Of a stretch of 64,000 nucleotides of DNA, positions 48,001-51,000 are shown one piece after another; the first letter of the stretch is position 1, and each line of letters opens with the position of its first letter. The stretch is from the NCBI RefSeq assembly GCF_054482595.1, contig NZ_JBTHVH010000004.1. One strand, 5' to 3'. The DNA comes from a plasmid. The position numbers were made by a program.

Positions 48001-51000
48001 AAAGTCGGTGCGATGCATAAAGTCCGTATTTTCGGACGTGTTGGTGAAGTTATAAGCAATGATAGCCCTCAGGAAAGAATCTTCCGCGAAGTCACTATAG
48101 CGGAGGGTAATAGCCAGCAGGCTGCGTTACTTGTAGATAACTACATACAGTGTCTTGAGAATAATGGCTTCACGACTGAAGCATAAATGTTGAGGGCCCC
48201 CGGGCCCTCTTTCTTAAATTCTGCGTTGTGGGTTTCTCCCTGTCTTCTGCACCGCAGAAGGCATTGAGAAACTCACAATGCCAGATAAGAGAGATCATCA
48301 TGACTTATGCATCCCCGGCTCTTCGTCGTAATCCACAGGAAGTATCTGAACACTTTATTAAACTCGTTCATGCTCGAATTGCTGAAGTGTCTGGCTGGAA
48401 GTATATATTCGAAAGAATACCTGCTTTCAAAGACGCTTGTGCAAAAGCCCCGAGCCAGGTTCCTTGCCCGTTTACTGGCGCAGGGAAATCGAAGTTTCGT
48501 TTCCGACAAAAAGACCTTTATACCGGATGTGCGATCCATAATGACTTTCCGGTAAATGAGTTTTGCGACGGAATTGATGTTCTGGCGAAATATTATGAAT
48601 TAAGTAAAACGCAGACTTGCAAAAAGATTCTCTCAGATTTTTTCGGGATGGATCTGCATGCTCCGTTAACTGACGCCGACATTGAAAATGAACGACGCTA
48701 TAAATCAGCAGTTCGTGCCACAGAAACTCTTGACCGAGAGGAAGTGGCAAAGCGAATGCGAAAACTTGATGTGATGTATCACTATACCGGTGAAATCAAG
48801 CCTAATACTCCTGTTGCTTTGTACCTCCGTAATCGTGGGATCTCCCGCTTACTGAGTCACTTACCAAAGGATTTAGGCTTTAATAACCGGATCTACTATT
48901 GGGATAAAGATAAGCAGAAATCGATTATCTATCCGGGAATGATTGCGATCTATCGTGACACCCGAGGTCGGCCTCTGACTATTCATAGAACATACGTAGA
49001 CAAAAATGGTGATAAGGCACCTGTAGAAAATCCAAAGCTGATGATGAAGCCTCCTGCCGATATGACAGGTGGCTCAATTCAGTTGTTTGACCCTCACTAT
49101 GATTCAGGTAGTTCGACCTGGACACTGGGAGTGGCTGAAGGGATCGAGAACGCGCTTTCTGTTGTAGAAGCGACTTCAACACCATGCTGGGCAGCCAGCT
49201 CCGCATGGTGCCTTGAAAACGTTACTGTTCCTGATTTTTTACTGCCTCCGCCGGATGTAAAATCTATAAACTTTTATATCTGGGCGGATAAGGATATTGC
49301 TAACTCACAAGGCACTCGTGCCGGTATTGAAGCTGCTCAGCGACTTCAAAGCCGCATGGTTGAGTTTTTGGCTAAACGATATCCCGCATCAAAGCTGACA
49401 ATTGAAGTCTTCGAACCAGCACAAGATATTCCTGATGGGAAAAAGGGTATCGACTGGAACGATGTTCTCCAGTTAACAGGGCAGGATGGATTCCCGATTC
49501 ACTGGGCTCCTGAATGTCTTAATCAGCTGTAACAACGATAACTCCCCCGCTTTTTGCGGGGGGGGTTATCTTATCAATATTATATTTTAAAATTGTATTG
49601 ATAAGATAACCGCTTTCCTTCGTGATAATTACCTGCCTTTAAGGTCTTTTCACGGCTGAGATGCTTGCTCAGTTAAATAAATGTGCGGTACTACTGGCTA
49701 TGGTCGGTTGTATGACATGGTTATTCCATAAACTATTAAAACCCATAACGGGAGTATTACCGTTATGGTGATGCTCGTCGTTTTACATCGGAGAGCATTT
49801 TAATGAATTTTCAAATTAACGAAGTTTTTAATAAATTTGCTGCTGTTATAAAATCGCGCATCGTCAATGAACCATCGTCATGCTATTTGCTGCATGATAA
49901 TGAGATAGATATAACGATTTTGAAACATAGCATATTAGAAAATGACAGAAACCTGTTGTACGTAGTTCGTCCTTCAGGAACGTGTTTGTTGCGTTGTGAC
50001 AAATATTTCTATCCGAAATATTATCTTCGTTGCCGTGGAGATTATAAGTCATTCATATATGTCCATCTTGATCTACATAGTGGTGAAGCTAAAGAAATCA
50101 CATGGGAGCAAGCAGACGATATGCTGTCTAGTCCAGGAAAACCCCCATTAAAAGGGAATCTTGGACGATTTGAGTATATAAAAGTTGTGGTTGAGGACCT
50201 TCGTATTCGAGGTTACGCTGATTATCTTCCTGCGTATAATCTTGATGACCTTCGCCGTTTTGCCTTACAGGACGACCGCCCATCCCTTGTCAGATACATT
50301 GACAATGTCATGGCAACGGTCTGATTGATTGCTAATTGATTTACATATTTTCCCTGATGGCCAACCTGCATCAGGGAGGCCTCAATAACGAATGGAGGCT
50401 GTATGAAGTTAGCTACGGACCTGGTAAAAGCTATTTTGATTAGAAATGGCGTTGAACCAGTAAATATAAGCGAATCATCTAAGTTATCTTTGAAACAACC
50501 ACTGACAGAACTTAAATTCAGTTTATATTTGCGAACTGAGCATTTATCTCACTTCCTACCCGGTTATGTTTATTCTATAAAAGAATGTCCACTGTCATAT
50601 GACATCGGGATCGAAATTCAGAAAATCTTCGAAAGTTTACATTTGTTAAACGAAGAATTTGAATCCCTCGGTTTTGTTTCTGTATGGATAGAAATGCATC
50701 AAAGCATTTTTGAACAAAGTCGGTTTAAGAAAAGTAACTTTACTTTTCGGGAGGAAGAGGTCGAGCTTGCTAAAGGGCTTGTTTGTTCTCACAATTCACA
50801 AATAAGTAATGCGGCTTATTTCTGGCTTCAGCACTTTGAGGAGTTTATGATTTATGTTCGTAATAAGCTTATCGACCTCTTTCGAGAGGCCTATGACCTG
50901 ATCCTTGGAATGCAGCAAGTATTTTTCATTCGGGAAAAGGAAGAGCTGTTGAAAACTATAAGTTATGGCGATGAGCTGTATGAGGTGAAATTCATGGCGG

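Follow-up and report, generated by a model that had tools for sequence, protein, structure and literature searches.

Tandem hairpins conserved after the Toprim gene of IncHI1/HI2 plasmids resemble a leaky terminator more than a protein operator

A perfect inverted repeat downstream of a Toprim gene on an IncHI2 plasmid was found to be one of two adjacent hairpins, both of which were real and beyond chance and had kept their structure in 10 lineages by means of compensatory changes. On the best reading, the repeat behaves like a conserved RNA hairpin that lies beside a terminator and ends an IncHI gene cluster; it is unlike a protein docking site. On balance, we lean towards hairpins 1 and 2 being the first two of a three-hairpin terminator/attenuator cluster that acts at the RNA level and permits partial read-through downstream. 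An initial annotation had read the repeat as the site of a dimeric DNA-binding protein gating transcription into the following genes, and removal of this unsupported operator hypothesis is the main value of the analysis.

Plasmid context

The window (the whole 64-kb stretch of DNA analysed) belonged to an IncHI2 (R478-like) plasmid. The hairpins lie in a 270-nt spacer between the end of a Toprim/DUF7146 gene (49532) and the start of a 173-aa ORF (49803); the features are listed in Table 1. The mechanical ORF of the Toprim gene began at 48228, and its stop codon, read directly, was TAA at 49530-49532. In two plasmids an IS insertion was located within the Toprim gene and left the palindrome untouched. 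The 173-aa ORF had no match in the family search; its AlphaFold model was confident (pLDDT 89), yet no PDB counterpart was found, and a search of the genome contigs with its alignment returned one locus only. Five genes of about 300 aa each followed it, reaching 55409. These had been described as an array of paralogs, which held for p312/p320 (E 2.5e-37) and p306/p311 (E 4e-5), while BLASTP detected no other relationships among them. IncHI1/HI2 plasmids carried both a 205-nt segment and the ~300-aa genes, and neither occurred in an IncHI3-like plasmid, a relative that retained the Toprim gene and lacked the hairpins. On a complete IncHI2 plasmid, the distance from the hairpins was about 90 kb to mobI/mobH and about 145 kb to repHI2. 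Because a Tus homologue was encoded nearby, an E. coli-type Ter site was considered; its consensus was unmatched.

Table 1. Coordinates of the hairpins, the flanking genes and other spacer elements in the window
Feature	Position	Strand	Description
Toprim_3 + DUF7146 gene	48300-49532	+	410 aa from the RefSeq start
Hairpin 1	49537-49570	+	candidate intrinsic terminator with interrupted U-tract
Hairpin 2 (inverted repeat)	49564-49611	+	AT-rich stem of 18-19 bp, folding as RNA at about -20 to -22 kcal/mol
Hairpin 3	49621-49654	+	outer stem CGTGA/TCACG, inner stem ACCT/AGGT (49631-49645), then CTTTTC
Nearly invariant block ACGGCTGAGATGCTTGCTCAGTT[A/T]AATAAATGTGCGGTAC	49652-49691	+	
Proximal module	49743-49798	+	common to other gene junctions of the cluster
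173-aa ORF (ORF173)	49803-50324	+	R0203 homologue by inferred R27 mapping

Structure of hairpins 1 and 2

Hairpin 1 began 5 nt past the TAA, and both flanking genes were on the + strand. Read directly, it consisted of GATAACTCCCCCGC (49537-49550), a TTTTT loop (49551-49555) and GCGGGGGGGGTTATC (49556-49570), arms whose complementarity was imperfect: a GC core of 7-9 bp, CTCCCCCGC-TTTTT-GCGGGGGGG (49542-49564), was separated by a small internal loop from an outer GATAAC/GTTATC stem. The terminator scan gave a stem of 9 pairs (8 G-C) with a 5-nt loop, at about -19 kcal/mol. The U-tract that follows, GUUAUCUUAUCAAUAUU, was interrupted and was accepted by the scan at its loose criterion; better U-tracts occurred elsewhere (CUUUUUAAUA in L026, L027 and L029). 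A rough, approximate score of the d'Aubenton-Carafa type came to -7 in the case of hairpin 1 and to -57 in that of hairpin 2. With an interrupted U-tract and negative d-scores, efficient intrinsic termination is not assured. The earlier call of a terminator here was nevertheless reasonable, since a conserved GC hairpin on the sense strand follows the stop codon and passed the scan.

The 14-nt repeat previously described, GGTTATCTTATCAA (49564-49577) and TTGATAAGATAACC (49598-49611) with 20 nt between, was exact, and its overlap with hairpin 1 was confirmed as GGTTATC (49564-49570). The perfect arms were longer than first stated, at 16 nt (49564-49579 and 49596-49611, with 16 nt between), and could be extended to 23 nt with 87% complementarity. 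When perfect inverted repeats of at least 14 nt within 60 nt were counted, the expectation was 0.015 per dinucleotide-shuffled 64-kb window (3 of 200 shuffles); the real window held one further such repeat, at 52298-52331. When 49525-49625 was folded as RNA, the two hairpins formed side by side (-40.3 kcal/mol; z = -7.0). A search of both hairpins against Rfam, under gathering and E-value thresholds, gave only spurious microRNA-like hairpin matches.

Conservation and covariation

A hairpin of 18-23 bp with 22-30% GC was retained at this position in 10 IncHI1/HI2 lineages, and every lineage folded in the same order, the GC hairpin and then the long AU hairpin. The GC hairpin was present in 10/10 lineages, in sense orientation and 5-10 nt past the stop codon. 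L024 and L029 each carried one C>T change in its 5' arm, and pairing was kept as U·G, which is possible on the + strand only.

Across 19 pairs of hairpin 2, 96.5% of the cells were paired, compared with 34-46% when the partners were slid by 1-3 columns. Five pairs were altered on both sides, and none of 500 shuffles reached the observed covariation score; four lineages beyond this set had still other inner-stem sequences. The inner 8-11 nt of the arms were wholly different among lineages, reading TATCAATA, CTTTAGTGTTTA, CTATTAAA, CTTTTTAATAAAG or CTTTTTAATATTG, with pairing maintained. Identity between HI2 and HI1 fell to 53-58% over hairpin 2, the lowest of the region; elsewhere in the spacer it was 80-88%. 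The IncHI1 versions of hairpin 2 contained one or two internal mismatches. In intact variants, by manual measurement, 35-40 nt separated the outer bases GGTTAT/ATAACC, which are conserved; in the deletion variant L004 the gap was only 13 nt. For TTATCT/AGATAA the corresponding distances were 30-33 nt and 9 nt.

These patterns bear directly on the proposed double-stranded DNA operator, at which a dimeric regulator would control a promoter of the downstream genes. The perfect 16-bp repeat lies far beyond chance, its outer GGTTAT/ATAACC bases are conserved, a -10-like GATAAT (49624-49629; GAAAAT in HI1) is placed 13 nt past the right arm, and the 205-nt segment shares its presence and absence with the ~300-aa genes, all of which would suit an operator. 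However, the inner arms are rewritten completely from lineage to lineage with compensatory pairing, and half-sites would rotate around the helix because the distance between the conserved bases varies. No further half-site was present over some 213 kb of IncHI2 sequence: the window, searched with up to 3 mismatches, and the remainder of a complete IncHI2 plasmid returned nothing beyond chance; the repeat is in single copy, which answers the suggestion that copies be sought elsewhere on the plasmid. Sigma-70 scans of both strands gave no spacer promoter at 9/12 or better, no -35 element for the GATAAT, and no conserved -35/-10 pair overlapping the repeat; a relaxed scan gave no pair common to HI2, HI1A and HI1B. 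Inspection by eye for sigma-54, CRP, Fur, IHF, KorA and ops-like motifs found none that fitted, and no DNA-binding family was detected in 11 neighbouring products, nor was a DNA-binding domain or fold found among them. In wild-type R27, moreover, the downstream genes are silent and track the upstream unit. Rewritten arms, varying spacing and the failure to find a second copy, a conserved promoter or a nearby DNA-binding protein together argue against an operator, which we regard as improbable.

Hairpin 3 and the remaining spacer

The 270-nt spacer as a whole was unusually structured (z = -7.8). In IncHI1 and other lineages the stem of hairpin 3 was clearer, with 6-8 T in a row after it. The nearly invariant block contained a hairpin, GCTGAG-N7-CTCAGT (49655-49673), and its conservation exceeded that of the flanking coding DNA. 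A hydrophobic reading frame of 36 aa that begins at 49661 was rejected as coding: frameshifts or truncations affected it in HI1, L024, L026 and L027, and third codon positions were not favoured among its substitutions. The proximal module opened with a hairpin, CCATAACGG-N8-CCGTTATGG (49743-49768), and continued with overlapping hairpins, one of which paired with the Shine-Dalgarno sequence GGAGAG (49790-49795).

The hairpin at 49743-49768 agreed at nearly every base with the first hairpin of the Rfam ssNA-helicase motif (RF03070) in its stem, CCAUAA..UUAUGG, and its loop, AGUAUUA, but it scored 23.4 bits against a gathering threshold of 41.5 and covered model positions 3-29 of 49 only. The IncHI1 and IncHI3-like homologues (L002, L007 and L010) gave no match to RF03070 at E <= 1. 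The source paper's main text makes no mention of the motif.

This likeness is among the points in favour of a function in single-stranded or cruciform DNA, where the primase-like Toprim protein might, for example, recognise the hairpins or prime on them during conjugative or lagging-strand synthesis. The motif's authors reportedly suspected that it might act in ssDNA. The hairpin cluster directly follows the Toprim/DUF7146 gene, and as ssDNA both strands folded equally strongly (z -7.4 and -8.1). As RNA, hairpin 2 was more stable on the + strand in 8/10 lineages and on the - strand in 2/10; with the + strand favoured in only eight, the asymmetry was dropped as evidence for RNA. A bias of this size and the equal folding of the ssDNA strands do not prove an RNA over a DNA role. 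Nevertheless, a signal in DNA appears very unlikely to us. With oriT, mobI and mobH some 90 kb away the site is not in the leading region, and the repHI2 replicon does not adjoin it. The U·G pairs of hairpin 1 could form on the + strand only, the IncHI3-like relative has the Toprim gene without the hairpins, and the position after a stop codon together with a step in expression is explained more simply at the RNA level. In our main reading the structure would act as RNA, not as DNA.

Expression across the junction

R27 (IncHI1) carries the HI1 version of the hairpin region at 173376-173468, and published microarray signals allow expression on its two sides to be compared. Toprim was assigned to R0204 from gene counts and the IS2-like expression of R0197, an inferred mapping that does not come from the R27 record AF250878; should the numbering be shifted by one, the expression step would lie one junction further downstream. 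Under this mapping, the signals in wild-type R27 at 25 °C were 403 for R0204 and 49 for R0203, with medians of 352 for nine upstream genes and 41 for six downstream genes. In the htdA mutant they were 15984 and 5679, with medians of 14240 and 3667. The drop across the junction was therefore about 8.6-fold in the wild type and about 3.9-fold in the mutant, by the inferred ORF mapping and from signals that are probe-dependent and all from IncHI1, none from an IncHI2 sequence. Every upstream signal exceeded every downstream signal in both conditions (nine genes versus six). By the same mapping, the Toprim gene was the last of a nine-gene 25 °C-induced cluster, which the R27 authors named 'R0204 to R0002'; the downstream genes were 'not expressed' unless the upstream unit was derepressed. 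As the htdA mutation derepresses most R27 genes, this co-derepression is no proof of read-through. For a different IncHI operon, the same authors documented transcripts that are partially terminated and processed.

We infer that the expression step is caused by termination at the hairpins. The transcription unit whose last gene is Toprim would end at the hairpin cluster, and the 173-aa ORF and the ~300-aa genes would receive only part of the transcription. In this scheme hairpin 1 and the U-rich stretch after it would form a leaky intrinsic terminator. The same stretch would double as the 5' arm of hairpin 2, so that hairpin 2 would form only in read-through transcripts, where hairpins 2 and 3 would serve as a further barrier or as a 3'-end structure. 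The proposed gating of the downstream genes may accordingly be kept as a leaky terminator, given the step in R27 and provided that R0204 is toprim; as a protein operator it finds no support. A terminator/antiterminator switch was rejected: hairpin 2 lies downstream of hairpin 1 and could not pre-empt it during transcription.

Within the leaky-terminator reading, hairpin 2 itself may be a second barrier, an RNase III site or an ssDNA element. E. coli RNase III acts on substrates of about two helical turns, and the 18-23 bp stem, close to that length, favours a site for RNase III or another double-strand-specific enzyme that would uncouple the upstream from the downstream gene set in stability and translation. 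Quasi-continuous AU-rich double-stranded RNA is available in all 10 lineages, with the structure conserved and the sequence not, and processed transcripts are on record for another IncHI operon. We nevertheless judge this role unlikely: the IncHI1 stems carry one or two internal mismatches, and the lasting AT-richness may simply reflect a terminator U-tract and its complement.

The expression data are also relevant to an alternative in which the AT-rich palindrome is mainly a nucleation tract for H-NS/Hha that aids silencing at 37 °C, its symmetry being incidental. IncHI gene expression is under H-NS/Hha and temperature control, the whole R27 region is silent at 37 °C, and hairpin 2 has its 22-30% GC in all lineages. 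However, AT-richness alone would not keep 18-23 pairs through at least five compensatory changes, and a special nucleation site is unneeded because the genes neighbouring hairpin 2 themselves have 30-40% GC. Such a tract is, in our estimate, very improbable as the main function.

Significance

Among the major carriers of mcr-1 and of multidrug resistance are the IncHI1/HI2 plasmids, whose backbone consists mostly of genes with no assigned function. By the R27 mapping, the junction is the end of a nine-gene unit under temperature and HtdA control (AAA ATPase, DUF3150, VWA, Toprim and others); it better defines the operon limits for functional work and bears on the degree to which the genes beyond it are shielded from that unit. 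Beyond operon definition, it is ordinary regulatory punctuation. We see a small chance that the AT-rich hairpin and its neighbours are more than that, either an ssDNA signal for Toprim or an RNA switch or processing element metering HtdA- and temperature-controlled transcription downstream.

Comparison with known systems

Palindromic operators of dimeric repressors share with hairpin 2 a perfect inverted repeat in an intergenic position ahead of a gene set. Unlike them, the repeat here has unconserved arm sequences, a single copy, no promoter overlap and no candidate regulator, and its spacing varies and is unusually long for such sites, with 16-20 nt separating the perfect arms and 35-40 nt the conserved bases. 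The ssi signals (G4-type; RSF1010 ssiA/ssiB), with which no sequence similarity is known, are likewise stable hairpin clusters beside a primase-like gene on a conjugative plasmid, but the present cluster is distant from oriT and oriV and has an RNA-level explanation at hand. Intercistronic RNase III hairpins, such as those of phage T7 early mRNA and rpsO-pnp, are also double-stranded AU-rich RNA of about 20 bp between cistrons, conserved in structure and not in sequence; the present stem differs from T7-type sites in having no recognisable internal-loop architecture. Under the leaky-terminator reading the likeness is to intrinsic (Rho-independent) terminators, including tandem or leaky ones of complex operons: a GC-rich stem-loop close behind a stop codon, a U-rich stretch, further hairpins with T-runs and, by the inferred R27 mapping, a partial drop in expression downstream. 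The IncHI cluster departs from this pattern in that its U-tract is interrupted and, in a non-standard arrangement, its U-rich stretch is the 5' arm of a long, covarying AU-rich hairpin.

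Location and structure of the hairpins

Three hairpins were located in the spacer between the Toprim gene (Toprim_3/DUF7146; stop at 49532) and ORF173, a 173-aa ORF. The 2.2 kb around them was 100% identical in more than 1,100 IncHI2 plasmids of Escherichia, Salmonella, Enterobacter and Klebsiella. The gene order in pSTM6-275 was trhN, trhI, three hypothetical genes, AAA ATPase, DUF3150, VWA, a 73-aa ORF, the Toprim gene, the 173-aa ORF, several ~300-aa hypothetical genes and a Tus homologue, with nearly all of them on a single strand. On a complete IncHI2 plasmid, mobI/mobH and repHI2 were ~90 kb and ~145 kb away, respectively, placing the site outside the leading region and the origin. 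An IS2/IS3-family insertion interrupted the Toprim gene in two IncHI2 plasmids (L023, CP122839.1; CP070394.1), indicating that the plasmid can be maintained in those hosts without this gene.

The initial annotation described a terminator overlapping a 14-bp inverted repeat; all bases it quoted were found in place by direct reading. The repeat was present and longer than first given, with perfect arms of 16 nt (hairpin 2) and an extended form of 23-nt arms at 87% complementarity. The chance expectation for a perfect inverted repeat of at least 14 nt within 60 nt was 0.015 per shuffled window. As RNA, the segment folded into a pair of hairpins lying directly next to each other (-40.3 kcal/mol, z = -7.0), and the entire spacer was strongly structured (z = -7.8). 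Apart from hairpin 2, the window contained a single perfect inverted repeat of at least 14 nt; it lies between two of the ~300-aa genes and is made up of a pair of overlapping palindromes, TTTCTCCCATAGGGA / TCCCTATGGGAGAAA and GGGATTTCTCCC / GGGAGAAATCCC. The downstream genes had been called a paralog array; BLASTP confirmed this for p312/p320 (27% identity, E 2.5e-37) and weakly for p306/p311 (E 4e-5), but not for other pairs, and none of the array products had a Pfam, NCBIfam or PADLOC family.

Coordinates of the features (window unless another record is named)
Feature	Position	Strand	Description
Spacer	49533-49802		270 nt, Toprim gene to ORF173
Hairpin 1	49537-49570		GC-rich; 9-pair core 49542-49564 plus outer GATAAC/GTTATC stem
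Hairpin 2	49564-49611		Perfect 16-nt arms 49564-49579 / 49596-49611
Hairpin 3	49621-49654		Also covaries; clean run of 6-8 T in several lineages
Conserved block	49652-49722		ACGGCTGAGATGCTTGCTCAGTT.AATAAATGTGCGGTAC...GGTCGGTTGTATGAC
36-aa ORF	49661-49771		MLAQLNKCAVLLAMVGCMTWLF...; probably not a gene
(A)CCCA...TGGG variant	49743-49768	+	CCAUAACGG-GAGUAUUA-CCGUUAUGG
ORF173	49803-50324	+	173 aa
Downstream array	50403-55409		
Overlapping palindromes	52298-52336		
(A)CCCA...TGGG hairpins	45824-45849, 47903-47930, 51292-51319, 52303-52326, 53282-53309, 54394-54422	+	
Deletion variant	L004 3138-3203		pEGY_KP9814_MCR1; central 23 nt of palindrome gone
Short-spacer locus	L007 3918-3985 and 4526-4881		Toprim gene and ORF173 homologue 68 nt apart; ~300-aa genes missing
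R27 hairpins	R27 173376-173468		IncHI1 version of hairpins 1 and 2
Nested repeats	L021 29277-29359		pMCR_B2_1, about 139.3 kb

Conservation across IncHI relatives

Homologous spacers were collected from IncHI2 variants and IncHI1A/B plasmids, from metagenome contigs (anchored gapped pattern) and from five more divergent lineages reached through ORF173 homologues at 55-66% identity. Hairpin 1 was kept in every lineage; L024 and L029 each carried one C>T in its 5' arm, which still pairs as U·G on the + strand only. Hairpin 2 was present in all 10 lineages (18-23 bp, 22-30% GC, -13 to -23 kcal/mol, z -4.3 to -9.2), and its primary sequence was the least conserved of the region, with HI2-HI1 identity of 53-58%; the remaining spacer reached 80-88% and the genes on either side about 70-80%. 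Its inner arms were rewritten lineage by lineage as TATCAATA, CTTTAGTGTTTA, CTATTAAA, CTTTTTAATAAAG or CTTTTTAATATTG. Given six sequences in an unbiased MAFFT alignment, RNAalifold recovered hairpin 2 with 19 pairs, five of them changed on both sides; 96.5% of cells were paired versus 34-46% when partners were slid by 1-3 columns, and none of 500 shuffles matched the covariation score. Most of these two-sided changes trace to a single deep split between HI2 and HI1; the four extra lineages supply independent versions.

The centre of the palindrome was deleted in 1-2 of about 1,117 IncHI2 records, leaving a 12-bp palindrome; this variant could be a palindrome-centred deletion or an assembly artefact. 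An IncHI3-like Klebsiella plasmid (L007) had neither hairpins 1-3, the conserved block nor the ~300-aa genes. Since they were missing together, the 205-nt hairpin/conserved segment and these genes may be gained or lost as one unit.

The non-coding conserved block was nearly invariant in all IncHI1/HI2 lineages, even where flanking proteins were only 55-70% identical, and neither a promoter nor an Rfam family nor a conserved ORF accounted for this. A hydrophobic 36-aa ORF whose start lies in the invariant hairpin's loop was truncated or frameshifted elsewhere (24-25 aa; 10 aa in L027), and so is probably not a gene.

Intergenic hairpins with the base (A)CCCA...TGGG followed almost every stop codon of the cluster at a distance of a few nt. 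The window had none elsewhere, and shuffles yielded 1.4 per 64 kb. Each such hairpin was followed by overlapping alternative hairpins, of which one had a terminal T-run and one paired with the Shine-Dalgarno sequence of the gene that came next; this layout resembles an attenuator or a device for translational coupling. The variant at 49743-49768 was a near base-for-base match, loop included, to the first hairpin of Rfam RF03070 (ssNA-helicase), scoring 23.4 bits against a gathering threshold of 41.5; the match was absent from its IncHI1 and IncHI3-like homologues. In the HI2-HI1 comparison, one pair of this hairpin had changed from A-U to C-G, a compensatory replacement, and another from A-U to G-U.

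Evidence on the proposed protein operator

The inverted repeat had been read as a dimeric DNA-binding-protein site gating the downstream genes. This was not supported: the half-site sequence was unconserved, and by hand measurement the outer conserved bases GGTTAT...ATAACC were 35-40 nt apart depending on lineage. No other half-site copy occurred in the window or the remainder of the complete plasmid. The spacer held no promoter at 9/12 or better, and a relaxed scan found no -35/-10 pair common to HI2, HI1A and HI1B. None of 11 neighbouring products had a DNA-binding family (Pfam, NCBIfam, PADLOC). The confident AlphaFold model of ORF173 (pLDDT 89, pTM 0.83) likewise had no significant PDB match by Foldseek (best E 0.59); the modelled fold may be undescribed. 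Separately, nested 14-nt inverted repeats (AAAAGTGACCCTATG and complements) ~330 bp upstream of mobI in pMCR_B2_1 are likely an oriT-associated set.

Expression of the R27 homologues

All genes of R27 (IncHI1, not IncHI2) were profiled by microarray (Gibert et al. 2020, PMC7366339), and the IncHI1 hairpins lie exactly between its Toprim gene and ORF173 homologue. ORF numbers were mapped by inference from the RefSeq annotation and the tables of PMC7366339, anchored by R0003 (trhI) and by R0195 and R0197, which behave like IS2 genes. On this basis, R0198-R0210 correspond one-to-one to the 13 genes that lie between IS2 and the origin of the record, so that the Toprim gene is R0204 and the ORF173 homologue is R0203. 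At 25 °C, wild-type signals were 403 for R0204, 49 for R0203 and 27-129 for the rest downstream; in the htdA mutant they were 15984, 5679 and 2740-6669 (PMC7366339). In these probe-dependent data, medians of the nine upstream and six downstream genes were 352 and 41 in wild type (ratio about 8.6) and 14240 and 3667 in the htdA mutant, where most of the plasmid is derepressed (ratio about 3.9). Each upstream signal exceeded each downstream signal in both strains. The downstream genes were reported as 'not expressed' in wild type and rose 38-115-fold in the mutant (PMC7366339).

Interpretation

The most economical reading is that the hairpins form a leaky multi-hairpin terminator ending the Toprim unit. 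Hairpin 1 and the adjoining U-rich stretch would be the first terminator. That stretch doubles as the 5' arm of hairpin 2, which can thus form only in read-through RNA. The terminator label, plausible as originally proposed, is uncertain: the U-tract after hairpin 1 is interrupted, and an approximate d-score was slightly negative. Hairpin 2 could be a second barrier or protect the 3' end; its length and AU-richness also fit a candidate RNase III site. It could also act in DNA; both DNA strands fold equally well, and the + strand RNA was more stable in only 8 of 10 lineages. Under the terminator reading, gating survives solely as partial termination. Another IncHI operon combines partial termination, processing and internal promoters (PMC7366339), and the hairpin cluster is a fresh example of an already known type of element.
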